Shown piece after piece: positions 5,209 through 55,438 of a stretch of 64,000 nucleotides of DNA. Made by a program: the position numbers and the translations under genes. Under the pieces are notes generated by a model, which saw nothing but the letters and a program-made list of their open reading frames with translations, had not been told where the DNA came from and did not search any database. The DNA lies in contig JBEKOM010000001.1 in assembly GCA_049521795.1 (NCBI GenBank), positions 544,001-608,000 on the forward strand, given 5' to 3'. The DNA is from Candidatus Bathyarchaeia archaeon (lineage in GTDB: Archaea; Thermoproteota; Bathyarchaeia; Bathyarchaeales; Bathycorpusculaceae). How positions within the stretch are numbered: position 1 is the first letter of the stretch; each line of letters opens with the position of its first letter.

Positions 5209-5526
5209 ATGCCAATATTTTTGATAGTTTCTAGGCATTCTGCAGAGAACTGTCCGCTGAACAATGAGAAGATGAAGAAAATGACGTTAGAATTGCCAGC
5301 CAAATTGGGCGGATTGGAGAAGAAACATGGAGTGAAGAGGATTGGAGCATGGACTGTAGTTCCGGAACATCTGTTGATTTGGGTCTATGAAGCCCCAAGC
5401 TCAGATGCTCTGCAAAAATTCTCGATGGAACCAGAAATGGTAAGATGGATGGCTTGGAACACCAGCGAAATCAAACTAGCAATGAGTCTCGAAGAAAGCC
5501 TGAAACTTCTAAAACAAGTCAAATGA
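5209..5526 (+). CDS. DUF3303/GYD-like dimeric alpha-beta barrel protein
   Basis: H-x-x-ENCP N-terminus, GVK-x-IGAW, EH-x-x-x-x-V-x-EAPS pattern; TTTATA promoter upstream. Confidence 0.7.
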   Translation: MPIFLIVSRHSAENCPLNNEKMKKMTLELPAKLGGLEKKHGVKRIGAWTVVPEHLLIWVYEAPSSDALQKFSMEPEMVRWMAWNTSEIKLAMSLEESLKLLKQVK

Positions 5527-5586
5527 AATCGCAACTTCTTTTTTCTCTGATTTTGCACCGGTCATTCAGCCAGCGTGCGCTCGTAA

Positions 5587-5868
5587 TTAATCTCTGTGTT
5601 CGTGGGATTCCTCTTCAGACTCTTCTTCATTCTCTTCTTCTTCCTCGGCAGCTTCTTCTCCTACGGCTCTTGCTTCTTCTTCAGCTTCTCCTTCTGCAGA
5701 ATAAGCCTCATCTAACCAGATCCTGAACTGTTCTTTGCTCTCAGGATCGGAAAAGGCCCACTCGCACAGTTGACTGACAACGGCGTTTAGATCGATGTCA
5801 TGATCGTCGGCCAAATTCTTCAGAAACTGTTCCCACTTTGGAGGCAGAGATATCGAAGACCCAACCAT
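5587..5868 (-). CDS. Hypothetical protein with RHH-like N-terminus and very acidic tail
   Basis: SISLPPKWEQFLKNLA...LNAVVSQL beta-helix-helix pattern, then poly-Glu. Confidence 0.6.
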   Translation of the reverse strand: MVGSSISLPPKWEQFLKNLADDHDIDLNAVVSQLCEWAFSDPESKEQFRIWLDEAYSAEGEAEEEARAVGEEAAEEEEENEEESEEESHEHRD

Positions 5869-6060
5869 TTTACTCTTTCACCATCACCTTTTATCATTCA
5901 AGCCATATTTAAGCTTCAGACGTACTTTTTGCCCGAAAGGTGCCTGAAACTGAGCGCGCGCTTCAAGCTAGCGAGCGTTTTCGCAGAATGAATCAGGCAA
6001 AATGATAAACAATTTATGAATCCGAAATCTAGACGCACGCTAAAGGAAAGAGACTGGATT

Positions 6061-6213
6061 CTATCTTTGTTCTTTTACCAACAACAGTCTCTTCGCGGTC
6101 TCTTTAGCGATCTTTTCAAGGCCCTCGGCTAATTCTGCACGGGTAACCTCGTCTATTGGATACACTTTCCCATTCTTATCGATGAATGCAAGTTCCAACT
6201 TCCTTTTTTCCAC
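6061..6213 (-). CDS. 50-aa hypothetical protein (MEKRKLELAFIDKNGKVYPIDEVTRAELAEGLEKIAKETAKRLLLVKEQR)
   Basis: Translated by hand; GTG start with strong GGAGGTGA Shine-Dalgarno. Confidence 0.65.
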   Translation of the reverse strand: MEKRKLELAFIDKNGKVYPIDEVTRAELAEGLEKIAKETAKRLLLVKEQR

Positions 6214-6302
6214 CGTTTCACCTCCTTCACACTCTATCATCTGCTACGGCGCGCGCCAACCTAAGAATCACAAGTTCCAATCCGCCATGTAAATCTAGTT
6301 TT

Positions 6303-6602
6303 TTAGTAGTTGCCGCGAGCGCGAGCAAGCTTGTAATTTCTATCTGACTCATCTGACGCTTGCTTGACCTTTCTATCTGACTCCTCGATCGCTCGATCTC
6401 GATCGATCGACGCTTGCTTGATATAGTTGTGTTCGCTCAGGTAGGCCATCACGATTGATCTGATTATTTCTGCGTCCTTTGTTCCAAAGCCTTTCAACGA
6501 CTGGATAATCTCCACTTGGTCTTCATCGAAGGTCACAAGAACGCGTTTACGCGAGCGTGCACCTTGACTAATCACTTCTGTCATGTATTCCTTAATCTTC
6601 AT
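6303..6602 (-). CDS. CopG/ribbon-helix-helix DNA-binding protein
   Basis: RKRVLVTFDEDQVEIIQSLKGFGTKDAEIIRSIVMAYL is a typical RHH strand-helix-helix. Confidence 0.75.
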   Translation of the reverse strand: MKIKEYMTEVISQGARSRKRVLVTFDEDQVEIIQSLKGFGTKDAEIIRSIVMAYLSEHNYIKQASIDRDRAIEESDRKVKQASDESDRNYKLARARGNY

Positions 6603-7120
6603 GCACGGTCATATATTCTTTGAGATCCCTGTCTCTTCCTCATTCAGAAAGACCGAATGGTTGCCGTGCTAGGAAGCATTGACGATGCAGTTATGTTCAA
6701 ACTCGGATATGTCAATATGAAGCTTCAAGATCAGATAAGGCCGTTCACATCGCTAAGCAGTTTGTCTCAAGCAAAATGGAAGTACAGAATCAGGTCTTGT
6801 AGAAATAAGTATACGTATTTCTCTCTTGTCATGAAGCGACGATACTCGATAATGAAACCGATCAGGACAACACAAGGTCTGCAAGAGCGAAAACGCACGG
6901 TCAGCCTAAGTCTGAACTTCAAAAGTGAACTCAAAGCTTTTTATCTCAAAAGCGTCCTGTTTTCTTTCATGTGCCCTGGATCTAGCAAAAGGTATGCACG
7001 CGATTACACAGATGAGGAGCTTCGGGCTCAGGCTCGCGATCTCGAGTGCGCCGTAACGATTCCCGTGAACGTGCCGGTGTCTTATTGTGAGCGCGTAAAG
7101 CAGCGCATCGTGGCCTTCGG

Positions 7121-7225
7121 CGCGTTGGCTTGTCCCTAAATTCGCAAAAAGTGCTGATCTGAAAGCATATACAATTTGCATATACACTTTGCATATACAG
7201 TTGACGAGCATCGTTGAAAACGCTG
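7121..7225 (+). repeat. 105-bp direct repeat copy 2
   Basis: 85/105 identity to 2532-2636; units AGCATATACAATT, TGCATATACACTT, TGCATATACAGTT. Confidence 0.9.
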
Positions 7226-7352
7226 AGGCCGTTCAGGTTGGCTGCCGAGCTGTGTGGGCGGTTCAAGTGCGCACGCATAATAGAGGGACACGGCAGCGTG
7301 CTTTACCGCAAGTGATTTAAGAAAAAGGTAGCATCGGCAAGTGGGGAATGGA

Positions 7353-8222
7353 ATGGCTTCTCTTCAATCTGTTAATGTCGATAGTGTTGAGCTGAGTTTC
7401 GTTGAGAGAGGCGCTGGGCGGTCAGTCATCTTCATTCATGGGATACCCACGGATTACAGGGCGTGGGATGCTCAAGTGGAAGCACTGTCGAAAGGTTTTC
7501 ACACGCTTAGCTACAGTAGGAGATGCGCATACCCTAGCAAGAGGAAGGACTTCGAGAACAGCACGATCGAGAATAACGCGAAGGACCTTGCTGGGCTGAT
7601 AAAGACGGTTGATGACGGTCCGGTTCATCTGGTGGGCCACTCGTACGGCGGGTTCGTCGCTGTCTACTGCGCGTTTCAGCACCCCGAGCTTGTGCGGAGC
7701 CTCGTTTTGGCCGTGCCCTACATTCCTACCTTGCTTATCAGGAACTTGGACTCTGCTCTGGATAAGTTCTCCCTTCTGGTGAGGAAGCCCTCAGTAGCGT
7801 TGTCTGCACAGAAGTTGTTGAATAACGCGGTTTACCCAGCGTTGAAGGAGCTTGACCAAGGAAACGGTGAGAAAGCCCTGAGGATACACCTCGACGGGTT
7901 GCAGCAGAGGCAGAACGCTTTCGACCAGTTCCCTGAACAAGTCAAGTCGATGCTGCTGGACAATAAAGAGACCATCAGGGAACTGACGACGAAGCTTCCG
8001 CCGTTCACCAGTGAAGAAGCCAGAACGGTTTCTGCGCCCACGTTGTTGATCAGAGGCGATAGCTGTCCGAAAGCCCTATGCGCCATAATCGAACTTCTCG
8101 CCAAAAGCATGCGCAAGAGCCAATCCACAACGGTCAGCAATTGTGCTCACTTCCCGCATTTTGAGAACCCTGAAGAGTTCAACTCGAAGATAAACGAGTT
8201 CCTTTCAAAACAAACCCCATAG
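7353..8222 (+). CDS. Alpha/beta fold hydrolase
   Basis: FIHG oxyanion motif, GHSYG nucleophile elbow, AHFPHFENP catalytic His region. Confidence 0.93.
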   Translation: MASLQSVNVDSVELSFVERGAGRSVIFIHGIPTDYRAWDAQVEALSKGFHTLSYSRRCAYPSKRKDFENSTIENNAKDLAGLIKTVDDGPVHLVGHSYGGFVAVYCAFQHPELVRSLVLAVPYIPTLLIRNLDSALDKFSLLVRKPSVALSAQKLLNNAVYPALKELDQGNGEKALRIHLDGLQQRQNAFDQFPEQVKSMLLDNKETIRELTTKLPPFTSEEARTVSAPTLLIRGDSCPKALCAIIELLAKSMRKSQSTTVSNCAHFPHFENPEEFNSKINEFLSKQTP

Positions 8223-8247
8223 GCCCTTGAGCCCGCAAAATGTAGGT

Positions 8248-8275
8248 TGATTGGCGTAAAGTTTTATCCAAACCA
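8248..8275 (+). repeat. Imperfect 11-6-11 palindromic site, copy 1 (TGATTGGCGTA AAGTTT TATCCAAACCA)
   Basis: Three similar sites in direct orientation at 8248, 8657 and 9259. Confidence 0.8.
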
Positions 8276-8656
8276 AACTTGACGACGATGCCTTGCCGTG
8301 GAAAAAGGCAACCATTGTCAGGGCAATGTATACAGTTCAGAAGACACGGCATTCGCATTGCAAAAAGAGGCTATTAAGAGAATCAGGTCATAATAGGGTG
8401 GGATATAGGTAGTATCGGAATCGAGTATACGGTCGCGTCAATTCCTTTTCAAAAATCTATCATAGGATGGCTGTATCTTTTTTGAGACGTCTTTATTTCT
8501 TCTTATTTGCTTTTTTAGCGCATTGGGCACTGCAATATTTGTTTTTGTTATCTAACGTCGTAAAGACTTTTCCGCAAATTGAACATTTCTTTTGAATAAT
8601 TCCCATTCAGTAGACCTCACCACTACAATTACGATTCAACAAATATAAGATTGCGC

Positions 8657-8684
8657 TGGTTGGGGTAAAGTTTTATCCCAAACC
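8657..8684 (+). repeat. Imperfect 11-6-11 palindromic site, copy 2 (TGGTTGGGGTA AAGTTT TATCCCAAACC)
   Basis: Similar to copies 1 and 3. Confidence 0.8.
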
Positions 8685-8766
8685 CAAACCCGAAGAATCG
8701 AGATGCAGAAAAGTTATAGCCGACCCAAATCAAGACTATCTTGTTTTGGCAGTGAAGGTGTCGACA

Positions 8767-9252
8767 ATGATTGACATATCTACTGTTTCCATTGCGATTG
8801 CTTCTGCTGGTGTGCTAGCAGGCGTCATATATTACGTCCTAGAGATTCGGCATCAGAGCAGATTAAGACAAACGGAGAGTATGATTAGACTATCTCCATG
8901 GTTCAATATGAGCGCTAGAGAAGTGCAGGAAGCAATAACTCTAGTCTGTTCAATCGAATACGAAGACTATGATGACTATCTTGCAAGGTATTCGGAAAAA
9001 CCAGAGCACATGATGTTGAAGATTCTTGGCAACTATTTCGAAGGGATAGGCATCCTTGTCTACAGAAAACTGGTAGAAGCAGACATTGTGTCCGATTTCT
9101 GGGGAGATATCATCCGATCATCATGGGAGAAGATTGAGCCACTGATAGTGGACATGCGAAAGGATTCTGGCGACCTTGGCATGTTTGAGTACTGGGAGTA
9201 TCTCTACGAACAAATGAAAAGAAGAAAGCAGAAGCTTCGACCAACAGCATAG
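8767..9252 (+). CDS. Membrane-anchored DUF4760-like protein
   Basis: N-terminal TM helix, then GNYFEGIGILVYRKLV...FWG...W...FEYWEYL pattern. Confidence 0.75.
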   Translation: MIDISTVSIAIASAGVLAGVIYYVLEIRHQSRLRQTESMIRLSPWFNMSAREVQEAITLVCSIEYEDYDDYLARYSEKPEHMMLKILGNYFEGIGILVYRKLVEADIVSDFWGDIIRSSWEKIEPLIVDMRKDSGDLGMFEYWEYLYEQMKRRKQKLRPTA

Positions 9253-9258
9253 ATTTGG

Positions 9259-9286
9259 GGTTTGGGGCAGAGTTTTATCCAACCAA
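9259..9286 (+). repeat. Imperfect 11-6-11 palindromic site, copy 3 (GGTTTGGGGCA GAGTTT TATCCAACCAA)
   Basis: Starts 7 nt after the DUF4760-like stop codon. Confidence 0.75.
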
Positions 9287-9392
9287 CCACAAACTACCGA
9301 CCACTGACCACTCTCAACTACTACCCTTACACCTACCTATGCCTACCTACCCATATACAACGCACACGGAGTGAGAGTGAGTGAAGGGCGCG

Positions 9393-9683
9393 TTAGTGTT
9401 TACACTTAGAAAGAATACTATTGACTTCCTCTAAGCTGACATCTCTAATCAGAATTTTCTTCTGCTTTGAAGTAAAACCAGAAATAATTTCACCTTTCTT
9501 CTTGAAAATCCTTGAAAGTTCCTTTATCAACTCTCTATTAACCTTACCTTTTACTGGAGACTCTTTACAATGCACCACAAGTTCATCATCTTCGATCTCA
9601 ATTTTGAATTCTCTCGAGTCTGGCTTAGCGTAGACATTCAGGACTACTCCTTGGTCCGTTTTCAACAGTTTCATTGTTGACAC
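9393..9683 (-). CDS. DUF167 / UPF0235 (YggU-like) protein
   Basis: LNVYAKP, PVKGKVNRELIKELS, IISGFTSKQK motifs. Confidence 0.9.
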   Translation of the reverse strand: MSTMKLLKTDQGVVLNVYAKPDSREFKIEIEDDELVVHCKESPVKGKVNRELIKELSRIFKKKGEIISGFTSKQKKILIRDVSLEEVNSILSKCKH

Positions 9684-9769
9684 AACTTTCTAGTTTCTTG
9701 TTTCTAAATTTGAATGGCTACTTTTAAATATGCGTGCGCCCTCGCTGATACAGGTTCAAGGGATACGTA

Positions 9770-10210
9770 ATGCCCAAGCAGGAAAAGGGAAAGTCGCATC
9801 AGACGAGGCCTGTCGGCAAGCGGCCTCCGAGCTGGTGCAAGTATCAGCCTGAGGAAGTGGAAGCCTTCATCGTCAAGCTGGGCAAGGAGGGGCATTCGCC
9901 GAGCAGGATAGGGACGATCCTGAGGGACCAGCAATCGGTTCCTTTGTCGAAGGCGATAACCGGCAAGAGAGTCTTAAAGGTGCTCAGGGAGAACGAATTG
10001 GCTCCATCCTTACCTGAGGACTTGGCAAGTCTGCTTAAGAAGGCTCACAGTCTGGGGCTTCACTTGGAGAAGAACAGGACCGACCTTTACAACAGAAGGG
10101 CGCTTCAGCTGATTGAAGCGAAGATCCACAAGCTCTCCAGGTACTATAAGCGTGAAGGTCTCTTGCCGCCCGCGTGGAAGTACGAACCCAAAATAGCTTC
10201 AATAACCTGA
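9770..10210 (+). CDS. rps15: 30S ribosomal protein S15 (uS15, archaeal S13e-like)
   Basis: GKSHQTRP, PSRIGTILRDQ, LPEDL, LIEAKIHKLSRYYK, WKY. Confidence 0.97.
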   Translation: MPKQEKGKSHQTRPVGKRPPSWCKYQPEEVEAFIVKLGKEGHSPSRIGTILRDQQSVPLSKAITGKRVLKVLRENELAPSLPEDLASLLKKAHSLGLHLEKNRTDLYNRRALQLIEAKIHKLSRYYKREGLLPPAWKYEPKIASIT

Positions 10211-10308
10211 ACACTCCCTTATTCCAAGCGCTTTCCAACAAACATATCTGCTAGCGGCCGCCGGAATGTGCAGTTTAAATCCTTAAATAACTGGGTTCCT
10301 AGCCTAAA

Positions 10309-11772
10309 GTGATTGTCATGGCCTCAGCTTTCGAAGATCAGGCCGCAGGTTTTTTAGGATTGGCTGAAAGTGCAGCCAAAACAATCTCAGAAACTGCCAG
10401 GCAAGACGGGTTGATACACGTTTTCTCGCACTTGGACGCTGACGGGATTGCCGCAGCCGGAATCATAGGAAAAGCGTTGTTGAGGCAGGACGCGAAGTTT
10501 CGAATCCGAATAACCCAGTGGATAGAGGACAAAATCGTCGGCGAGGTTCTTTCAGACAAGCCTCAGCTCATAATCTTCACTGACCTGGGAAGCGGCTACG
10601 TTGACCTGCTCAACCAGAAACTTCCAGACTTCAAAATCGTGATCTTGGACCATCATCAAATCGTCGGCAAAGAGTCAGACAACATTGTCCACGTGAACCC
10701 TCATCTGCAAGGCGTTGATGGGGCCAGAGACATCAGCGGTTCCGGCGTTGCCTACTTCGTGGCTAAGGCTCTGGACAAAGTGAACGTTGACCTATCGCCC
10801 GTCGCTGTCGTCGGCGCCCTCGGAGATCTGCAGGACAAGTATGACCAGCGCATGCTAAAGGGGCTGAATGAAAAGATCGTTGAGGACGCAACAAACTCTG
10901 GTCTCCTGACCGTTGACAAAGACCTTATTTTCTTCGGAAGAGAAACTCGGCCAATCATCAGAGCCTTGGCTTCGACGACAAATCCCTTCATCCCGGACAT
11001 AAGCGGCGACGAGAACAACAGCCTTGCTTTCCTGAAAAGCTTAGGCATTGAGCCAAAGGTTGGGGACAAGTGGCGCGCCCTGAGGGACCTCTCGGAAGAA
11101 GAAAAGAAACGTTTGTGCTCAAAGTTGGCCGACCACCTGGTTTCGAAAGGCCTGCACTACGAGGTGTCGAGCCTCATCGGACACGTTTACATCCTGTGCA
11201 GTGAGGAGCCTTGGACCCCGCTCAGGGACGCCCGTGAGTTTGCCGTCTTGTTGAACGCGACAGGGCGAATGGACAAGGCTGGTCTCGGAGTGGCCGTCTG
11301 CATGGGTGACAGGGGTTCAGCGCTCGAAGAAGCCAACAGAGTGCTTGAGGATTACCGAAGAACCATAAACAAGTACCTCGGCTGGGTGATGGAGAAGCCT
11401 GAAAGAATGAAGGAGTTCGAAAACATATACGTCGTTTACGGGGAAGACTTTATCAACGACAAGATGGTGGGAGCGATCTCGTCTATACTGACTTCAAGCC
11501 TTCCAAACCCGGAGAAACCCTTGATCGCTTACGCAAACCTGCAGGACGAAGGAATCGCAAAAATCTCGGCTAGAACCATGGACACCGTCATAAACAGAGG
11601 CGTTAACCTGGGCGAAGTGATGCAGGTTGCCGCCGAAAAATTCCATGGAAACGGCGGTGGACATAACATAGCCGCAGGTGCGCAGGTCTCGATAGGAAAC
11701 GTCGGCGACTTCATAAAAACTGTGAACGAACTCGTCGGCAAACAGCTCAAGGGCGAGAAGATTGGAAGCTGA
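10309..11772 (+). CDS. DHH family phosphoesterase (RecJ-like)
   Basis: HLDADG, FTDLGSG, LDHH, GGGHNIAAG; conserved position after rps15. Confidence 0.93.
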   Translation: MIVMASAFEDQAAGFLGLAESAAKTISETARQDGLIHVFSHLDADGIAAAGIIGKALLRQDAKFRIRITQWIEDKIVGEVLSDKPQLIIFTDLGSGYVDLLNQKLPDFKIVILDHHQIVGKESDNIVHVNPHLQGVDGARDISGSGVAYFVAKALDKVNVDLSPVAVVGALGDLQDKYDQRMLKGLNEKIVEDATNSGLLTVDKDLIFFGRETRPIIRALASTTNPFIPDISGDENNSLAFLKSLGIEPKVGDKWRALRDLSEEEKKRLCSKLADHLVSKGLHYEVSSLIGHVYILCSEEPWTPLRDAREFAVLLNATGRMDKAGLGVAVCMGDRGSALEEANRVLEDYRRTINKYLGWVMEKPERMKEFENIYVVYGEDFINDKMVGAISSILTSSLPNPEKPLIAYANLQDEGIAKISARTMDTVINRGVNLGEVMQVAAEKFHGNGGGHNIAAGAQVSIGNVGDFIKTVNELVGKQLKGEKIGS

Positions 11773-55136: not shown

Positions 55137-55438
55137 ACTGCAACACAGGTCAACCTTGATCTGGGCAGTTTGTCGGATTTCTGGGCTCCTCCTAAAGTAT
55201 TAGCCATAGAGACCAGCAACGTTCCGGGTGCGGAACCTGCGGGTGCATACGCTAAACTCCTTCCATCTAGTTCCAATAAAGGAGAAACAGATCTTTGACC
55301 TAGGTGAGGAGTAATGGGTCGGACAGACCAGAAATCACGTTGCCGAGGTTATGTCTATGCGCGCGCTCGCTGGCTTCAAACTCTTCTTTGACAGCAGATA
55401 AGTCATGTATCGAACCAAAACAGCGGGGTGTTCAATGA

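Follow-up and report, generated by a model that had tools for sequence, protein, structure and literature searches.

A promoter-like intergenic cassette as a putative recombination joint between accessory-gene modules in a bathyarchaeal genus

A 64,000-nucleotide stretch of the genome of a Candidatus Bathyarchaeia archaeon (Bathyarchaeales, Bathycorpusculaceae; assembly GCA_049521795.1, contig JBEKOM010000001.1, forward-strand positions 544,001 to 608,000, or C1:544001-608000 in our numbering), hereafter the window, carries three copies of a short cassette consisting of a near-palindromic 17-mer core between arms of simple sequence. In this genome (G000; 2.44 Mb, 69 contigs, rated 98.75% complete) and its relatives the cassette is a genus-wide intergenic family that is rare outside the genus; it is confined to the flexible genome, and homology between loci and between species breaks repeatedly at its core. 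In addition, the core centre, TAAAGTTTTAT, is the same sequence as the promoter box of the signal recognition particle (SRP) RNA gene in the order. On a balance that we judge to be only just favourable, these elements would be portable cassettes with an SRP-type promoter, and their short identical cores would be where accessory-gene modules are joined by recombination.

The core is a 16-17-bp near-palindrome, GGGTAAAGTTTTATCC(C), whose positions -1 to +15 are nearly invariant among 74 sites of G000 and of a second genome of the genus, G001. The preliminary description of the window, made from its letters alone, had drawn the repeats as recombinase-like sites of fixed 11-6-11 geometry; the conserved asymmetric centre that it noticed does belong to a real site family, and the fixed geometry gives way to a conserved 16-17-bp core with variable simple-sequence arms, conservation reaching only ~5 bp to either side of AAGTTT and the outer arm positions being variable simple repeats. 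Left arms are made of GGTTT, GGTT, GA/GAA, GT or GC repeats and right arms of C-rich counterparts (CCAAA, CCAA, TC, CA), and over the 74 sites the left 20 nt hold 34% G and 11% C, the right 20 nt 32% C and 15% G. Arm types pair freely, as when GA on the left meets CCAAA on the right, and longer arms, of 60-180 nt, form families that reappear next to different cores, at times as the reverse complement on the opposite side. No strong hairpin was found when the three window sites were folded on both strands (z -1.46 to +0.12 versus shuffles).

A 15-mer of the core occurs in G000 16 times exactly, 30 times with at most one mismatch and 45 times with at most two, the reversed-sequence control giving 0, 0 and 3 matches. 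The site set used below was drawn up with a 16-mer at no more than two mismatches, keeping 41 of 43 matches in G000 and 35 of 37 in G001; the four matches removed by eye were armless and two of them lay inside aligned genes. Variants of the core with a one-base deletion exist, and all site counts are therefore lower bounds. The core was present in all 10 other genomes of the genus, with 20-38 matches at no more than one mismatch in the six largest (reversed control 0), and none of 30 genomes searched outside the genus had more than 6 core matches. A scan of IMG/VR with the 17-mer returned 17 stretches, of which 7 were unrelated conserved coding sequence and 9, on 6 contigs, had typical arms, a small sample; one predicted viral contig of 9.9 kb held three armed cores within 2.6 kb (3 overlapping stretches) and five other contigs held one armed copy each.

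Placement was assessed against G001, a complete single contig rated 97% complete, with ~1.50 Mb aligned to G000 at 91% identity. All G000 sites are intergenic, and none of the 41 lies inside a megablast block shared with G001, versus 443 of 931 (48%) ordinary intergenic midpoints. The sites are spread over 25 variable islands of 0.8-43 kb each, 273 kb in total, with one to five sites apiece. Nearby open reading frames (ORFs) encode about 11 GNAT acetyltransferases, several methyltransferases, metallo-beta-lactamase-fold hydrolases, SnoaL/DUF4440, glyoxalase, cupin and isochorismatase proteins, and also PIN, AbiEii, HEPN, HTH regulators and two further DUF4760 genes. This restriction to variable regions, in every kind of intergenic context, and the three AsnC-type HTH genes and one RHH-like gene beside sites would also suit the operator of a dimeric DNA-binding protein (a regulator, silencer or insulator) for acquired genes, which would mark foreign DNA; a 17-bp near-palindrome is typical of dimeric regulators. 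We give this explanation only a small chance, since it accounts neither for the simple-sequence arms, nor for a core identical to an essential RNA gene's promoter, nor for homology that breaks at the core when any point of the spacer would do, and no candidate protein is conserved beside the sites.

Multi-copy, intergenic sequences in near-random orientation, with arm families that recur inverted on either side of different cores, likewise recall REP/BIME or MITE elements, selfish short repeats that a transposase spreads and that pile up in dispensable DNA; G000 is also rich in an unrelated MITE family. Here the chance seems to us smaller still. The sites make poor hairpins on both strands, which is not the habit of REP sequences; G000 has no Y1 (RAYT/IS200-type) transposase (0 matches to PF01797); the centre of the repeat is conserved and not its termini; and no clean insertion into a syntenic spacer was seen, only 4 of 844 block ends lying within 30 nt of a site and synteny resuming at no site.

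Breaks of homology at the core speak for a joint function. Sixteen pairs of non-allelic sites in G000 and G001 have one flank in common (at least 100 bp at no less than 80% identity), and in both partners of every pair the alignment stops at the core; lower thresholds give a longer list of such one-flank pairs. Three of the sites place the exchange inside the core, since there each half-core keeps to its own flank, a variant right half (TTTAATCC) to the right one and the normal left half to the left one. Half-core linkage could be followed over the 16 pairs with little variation to go on, right-shared pairs showing 6 left-half versus 3 right-half mismatches and left-shared direct pairs 5 versus 4. 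The content between sites also differs from genome to genome. At 61-67 kb of contig C3 of G000, 2,971 bp made up of three modules stand in place of 574 bp of G001, upstream of a common site and between conserved flanks; the longer stretch runs through a methyltransferase gene, a site, a GNAT gene, a degenerate site, an RHH-like gene and the final site, and its counterpart consists of another small gene and one site.

The window itself offers the same picture on a small scale, in the following features.

8254..8269, plus strand: core of site 1 (GCGTAAAGTTTTATCC), about 8246-8279 including arms, 31 nt past the last base of the hydrolase stop codon.
8663..8678, plus strand: core of site 2 (GGGTAAAGTTTTATCC, exact consensus), about 8657-8693 including arms, between the divergent zinc-ribbon and DUF4760 genes.
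9265..9280, plus strand: core of site 3 (GGGCAGAGTTTTATCC), 12 nt past the DUF4760 stop codon, between convergent genes.
7341..8222, plus strand: alpha/beta hydrolase gene, left neighbour of site 1, with a TAG stop.
8273..8437, plus strand: conserved non-coding element of ~165 nt, directly 3' of site 1 and inside the 409-bp module.
8493..8606, minus strand: zinc-ribbon ORF of 37 aa with two CxxC pairs; in Pfam, weak zinc-finger matches only.
8767..9252, plus strand: DUF4760 gene (Pfam PF15956, E 9e-14), cargo of the 602-bp module; ATG at 8767, with an in-frame TTG at 8746 too.
9393..9683, minus strand: DUF167 (YggU) gene (Pfam PF02594, E 7e-14), its 3' end towards site 3; third module.

The three same-strand copies, with cores starting at 8254, 8663 and 9265 and hence 409 and 602 bp apart, agree with what had been described, as do the DUF4760 gene in the 602-bp module and the 25 nt that separate the hydrolase stop from site 1 when the latter is drawn from 8248. 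The 22-mer proposed in the preliminary description, at no more than three mismatches, matches the window at these three places and no others, against no match in 100 dinucleotide-preserving shuffles, so that three are observed where chance gives none. In contrast, the stop-interrupted hydrophobic frame assigned to the 409-bp module was not upheld, this module holding the ~165-nt element and the zinc-ribbon ORF. Site 3 is followed by a C/A-rich, nearly G-free tract that extends to about 9365. Of the hydrolase gene, only the last ~75 nt match other genomes of the genus at the DNA level, namely G001, where the same 3' end and a site are present at 1739360-1739487.

The modules between these sites recur elsewhere. 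Module 1, from site 1 to site 2, has an 89% identical copy at 394040-394470 of G001, between two sites and surrounded by unrelated DNA; the DUF4760 module (8666-9278) is 92% identical at G002:C21:17274-17886, directly upstream of the SRP RNA gene; and the DUF167 gene is 91-92% identical at G001:1263430-1263756 and G002:C28:15752-16124, two unrelated places at each of which a core adjoins it. The zinc-ribbon unit with site 2 (8477-8678) is 93-96% identical in G005, G009 and G002, and in every copy its homology ends where the core does, on the right; around site 2, stretches of 35 bp are 100% identical in G009. RecJ, by comparison, is 74-76% identical to that of G000 in G005 and G009 and 92% in G002. 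Because the DNA of the mini-gene is so much closer than RecJ in G005 and G009, these figures suggest its recent transfer within the genus. Site arrays around small genes whose content varies between genomes, as had been predicted, are thus borne out by comparison of G000, G001, G002, G005 and G009. The observations that would have spoken against the prediction were not made: sites do not stand singly after conserved genes, module content is not invariant and the spacer is not variable.

Logan metagenome contigs from four runs cover 8314-8715 at up to about 100x the summed depth of its neighbours and with diverse flanks, and many of them diverge at 8657 and at 8687-8690; the site and the zinc-ribbon unit are thus present in many copies in these communities. 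Joints that skip from one site to another were all short-sided (21-40 nt) and indistinguishable from other repeat copies. Two back-joints, also short-sided (X3, 9294 to 8704; X4, 8655 to 8253), would be produced by a circle and by tandem paralogous modules alike.

The second line of evidence concerns the SRP RNA gene. Archaeal promoters combine a purine-rich B recognition element (BRE) with an adjacent AT-rich TATA box, centred about 26 nt (25-30 nt) upstream of the transcription start. Archaeal SRP RNA and RNase P RNA genes were identified in G000, and in the 8 genomes of the genus with sequence at that place GGCAAAGTTTTATA is invariant and precedes the start of the SRP RNA match (RF01857, 158-161 bits) by ~28-38 nt, the position called for in an archaeal core promoter. 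A TAAA[G/C]TTTTAT-like box stands at the same position in most of 27 genomes of the order that were read, one genus having AGGGTAAAGTTTTATAGG instead. This conserved box is, on sequence grounds, the BRE-TATA promoter of the SRP RNA gene, because both its sequence and its spacing fit known archaeal promoters. In G002 the DUF4760 module ends on its right in a core that doubles as the SRP promoter and runs straight into the SRP RNA gene (Rfam 160.5 bits), and the same arrangement of promoter and gene is found at the SRP RNA genes of G000 and G001. The DNA upstream of the SRP promoter is mostly unrelated among genomes of the genus (G000 and G010 share theirs), with G/T-rich arms in 6 of 8; therefore, synteny mostly breaks at the SRP promoter too. 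The SRP promoter acts as a joint in spite of having neither the right half-site nor the C-rich arm. As for the multi-copy sites, seven ORFs of at least 100 aa start 33-68 nt downstream of a core, a gap that leaves no room for another promoter, and we infer promoter activity at these sites. A second candidate promoter motif, TTTAAA..GCGTGC, was dropped, only 2 copies having been found.

Taken together, the cassette would most likely be a portable archaeal promoter, carried at many intergenic places. It could fire in both directions: with a core of near symmetry and C-rich strands reading outward on either side, two-way initiation is a reasonable expectation, perhaps with small or antisense RNAs as products. 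Read-through, in turn, may be hindered by the G-rich incoming strands, which would give the arms an insulating role. Cassettes would then stand at the joints of units that assort independently, namely accessory genes, the small RNA-like element and the zinc-ribbon mini-gene, and recombination within a cassette would exchange either side with another locus or another species of the genus. As the most probable mechanism we assume recombination over 17-35 bp of shared identity, as proposed for the PeSL cassettes of phages.

Several observations weigh against such an account. Orientation with respect to flanking ORFs of at least 100 aa is near random (site and both ORFs in one direction, 23; divergent, 22; convergent, 17; both ORFs against the site, 13; n=75), the downstream ORF is co-directional at just 45 of the 75 sites, and the 17 sites between convergent ORFs, site 3 included, have no obvious protein gene to drive. 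Some genes have a TATA-like box of their own between site and start codon, as in the GNAT gene at 64 kb of C3 and in the zinc-ribbon gene, which is transcribed away from site 2 and shows on the minus strand a TATA-like box at 8640-8648 and a ribosome-binding-like GGTGAGGT at 8614-8621. The tRNA, 5S and RNase P promoters of G000 follow a related but somewhat different consensus (CGAAAG/CGATAAG then CTTA...), and the core would therefore be an SRP-type variant, not a general promoter. Besides, other processes also reshape these regions, as island borders and several module ends lie off sites: the outer borders of four simple insertion-type islands relative to G001 are not at sites, nor is the left end of the zinc-ribbon unit, and with 41 sites in 273 kb only part of the island genes are site-bounded.

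The same positions bear on the proposal that the sites are transcription terminators, a T-run after a G-rich tract that would end upstream genes. Many sites do lie 12-90 nt past a stop codon (31 nt for site 1 and 12 nt for site 3) and the core contains TTTT. Nevertheless, we find this hardly credible: the 22 sites between divergent ORFs have nothing to terminate, the minus strand offers just TTT, a strong hairpin is missing, and the same sequence serves as promoter at the SRP RNA gene.

The preliminary description also supposed a dedicated enzyme. Its cassette shuffling stands in outline, insofar as modules are swapped at sites, neighbours differ between genomes and breaks fall at sites; its driver, a Xer-type tyrosine recombinase acting in trans, is unsupported. 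Tyrosine recombinase genes (PF00589) number ten in G000 and 9-12 in each of four relatives, and some are within a few kb of sites, but none is consistently adjacent to them in these five genomes; in G001, 1 of 9 is within 1 kb of a site. A search of G001 by tblastn with both XerA-like proteins of G000 found no XerA-like gene (best E 7e-4) despite its 35 sites, and both XerA-like genes of G000 are within islands absent from G001. One of these islands begins in the window at 55317 (C1:599317-610905, 11.6 kb), ends at a tRNA-Leu gene and is probably an ordinary integrated element; just outside the window it carries the XerA-like integrase C1:609372-610370, whose stop codon abuts a palindromic variant of the site (integrase and variant, C1 609359-610370). 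This variant could speak for att-like sites of a site-specific recombinase acting in trans, with circular excision, re-insertion and crossover in AAGTTT. So could the conserved asymmetric centre between imperfectly inverted half-sites, the direct orientation of 11 of the 14 pairs of adjacent sites, the breaks inside the core, the integron-like cargo, the abundance of recombinase genes and the two back-joints. Such a system nonetheless appears distinctly unlikely, given the lack of a consistent neighbour, the G001 genome with its many sites, the absence from that genome of the tRNA-Leu island, back-joints that are short-sided and equally well read as tandem paralogous modules, an SRP promoter that is a joint with half of the site missing, and a conservation of the core that promoter function alone accounts for.

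A bolder version of the promoter-cassette account, rather unlikely in our judgement, would have self-expressing modules excised, captured and re-ordered by a non-integron archaeal cassette system, with the promoter-identical 17-bp core and its asymmetric arms as the dedicated joint and some recombinase or transcription-coupled recombination at the core as the agent. The pool of modules would be common to species, because module DNA is 93-96% identical in genomes that are ~75% identical in a housekeeping gene.

Among known systems the closest functional match to promoter cassettes acting as joints would be the PeSL cassettes (Arbiol et al. 2010; Comeau et al. 2014), of which ours could be an archaeal chromosomal analogue. 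PeSLs are conserved promoter/terminator motifs in the hyperplastic regions of T4-type phages; when they recombine with one another, small genes are reshuffled and mini-circles arise (PMC2839356, PMC4122927). Both systems comprise short promoter-containing cassettes (the promoter being predicted here) in variable regions, flanking small and mostly non-essential genes; insertions, deletions and replacements between relatives end in the cassettes, and inter-cassette recombination is proposed for the shuffling. They differ in setting (an archaeal chromosome here, a phage there), in promoter type (BRE-TATA versus sigma-70), in the strand-asymmetric simple-sequence arms that stand here where PeSLs have a terminator stem-loop, and in that mini-circles are known for PeSLs whereas we have back-joints that fit a circle or a tandem copy. 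Repeated promoter sequences independent of the downstream gene, as predicted here, are also described in a report on halovirus HF2, with promoter-bearing intergenic repeats positionally conserved within one virus genus (PMC8707807), and in a survey of 'promoter reuse', with near-identical promoters at many intergenic places (Nijveen et al. 2012, PMC3575422); a role as recombination joint is absent from the abstract on HF2. A literature search found no description of such an element in archaeal chromosomes.

The cargo invites comparison with integrons, whose cassettes carry acetyltransferases, toxin-antitoxin genes and small enzymes similar to those found here and whose attC sites end in an R'' box RYYYAAC and an R' box GTTRRRY. 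Arrays of small accessory genes split by a repeated site, with adjacent sites mostly direct, are a further likeness. The core, however, has GTTTTAT / ATAAAAC, at odds with each box in two positions, and its conserved block is central, not terminal; that the sites lack attC ends had been stated correctly beforehand. Nor is there the attC palindrome of 55-141 nt with a stable hairpin, folding being as weak as given above and arms often non-complementary (GA left with CA right, for example), and in place of promoterless co-oriented cassettes we see the mixed orientations already counted and some cargo with its own TATA-like boxes. No IntI gene was identified among the ten PF00589 matches of G000 or the 9-12 in each of four relatives, the IntI-specific extra domain not having been examined. 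Archaeal integrons with canonical attC sites do exist, and clusters are possible without a neighbouring integrase, according to Ghaly et al. (2022, PMC9668308).

Xer/dif sites and the pdif modules of Acinetobacter plasmids have 11-bp arms around a 6-bp spacer, with sites in alternating, inverted orientation. A layout of roughly 11-6-11 can be drawn on our sites and the modules are site-bounded, as in pdif; in contrast, neighbouring sites no more than 3.1 kb apart in G000 are mostly direct (the 11 of 14 pairs were read by eye), the outer arms are variable simple repeats, and G001 has its sites and no XerA-like gene.

The ~165-nt element was found in 10 copies in 6 genomes, of which 8 lie directly after an intact core and start ~10-15 nt past it. 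A variable 5' hairpin region is followed by a domain of ~115 nt, closed by a 13-bp helix with two GTATAC boxes; the 3' block of the element, CATAATAGGG...GGAATCGAGTATAC, is invariant. The closing helix is paired in 92% of alignment cells and is the sole conserved helix by RNAalifold; covariation was no better than in shuffles, and with a hand-added second helix 117 of 500 shuffles reached the observed score. In Rfam, neither the sites nor the module nor the element had a match at E<=1 (window 5500-10500 scanned). Projected from the SRP spacing, transcription would start where the folded part begins, in favour of a promoter role of the core, and it is possible that the element is a small RNA transcribed from the core, or else an element acting at the DNA level.

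Should the promoter-cassette account be true, an uncultured and globally abundant archaeal lineage would reshuffle its accessory genes at copies of one of its own strong promoters, every transferred module would arrive ready for expression, and one short sequence would tie gene regulation to pangenome dynamics; promoter-cassette shuffling has so far been described for T4-type phages and not for a cellular archaeal chromosome. In practice, the 17-mer would be a simple marker by which to recognise the flexible genome and the borders of modules in these metagenome-assembled genomes; future genetic tools for the group could draw on the core as a candidate strong promoter, and the ~165-nt element is a candidate new small RNA.

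Some further observations concern the mobile and variable DNA of these genomes. A model of transposons with terminal inverted repeats and target duplication, which originated from the ~30-nt inverted arms of a module at 29028-31078 of contig C7 of G000, was rejected as a general model, as arm families differ between modules; same-type arms in 6-7 of 11 modules, a tally by eye, are not clearly above chance. At window 7120-7302 lies a MITE-like repeat of ~183 bp with 23-nt terminal inverted repeats, 74% complementary; it is unrelated to the sites and has about 23 partial or full copies in G000 (73-90% identity) and many more in G001 and G002. Runs of GCGCGC(GC) were seen by eye at several borders between conserved and variable DNA (G000 C1:480653, C4:132901, C4:137126, C5:9980) and also near many arms. 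The genes for S15 and a RecJ-like protein are adjacent in G000 (window 10210-10309); 5-6 kb separate them in G001 (1743561-1749727), with no site at the borders of the gap, and in G002 (C1:227442-232418), and 1.8 kb in G010. Finally, the 3' end of the RNase P RNA gene of G000 overlaps the start of a tyrosine integrase ORF (C4:107392-108630), and in G001 a different integrase, 32% identical, comes right after the same conserved RNase P block, which looks like an integration hotspot.

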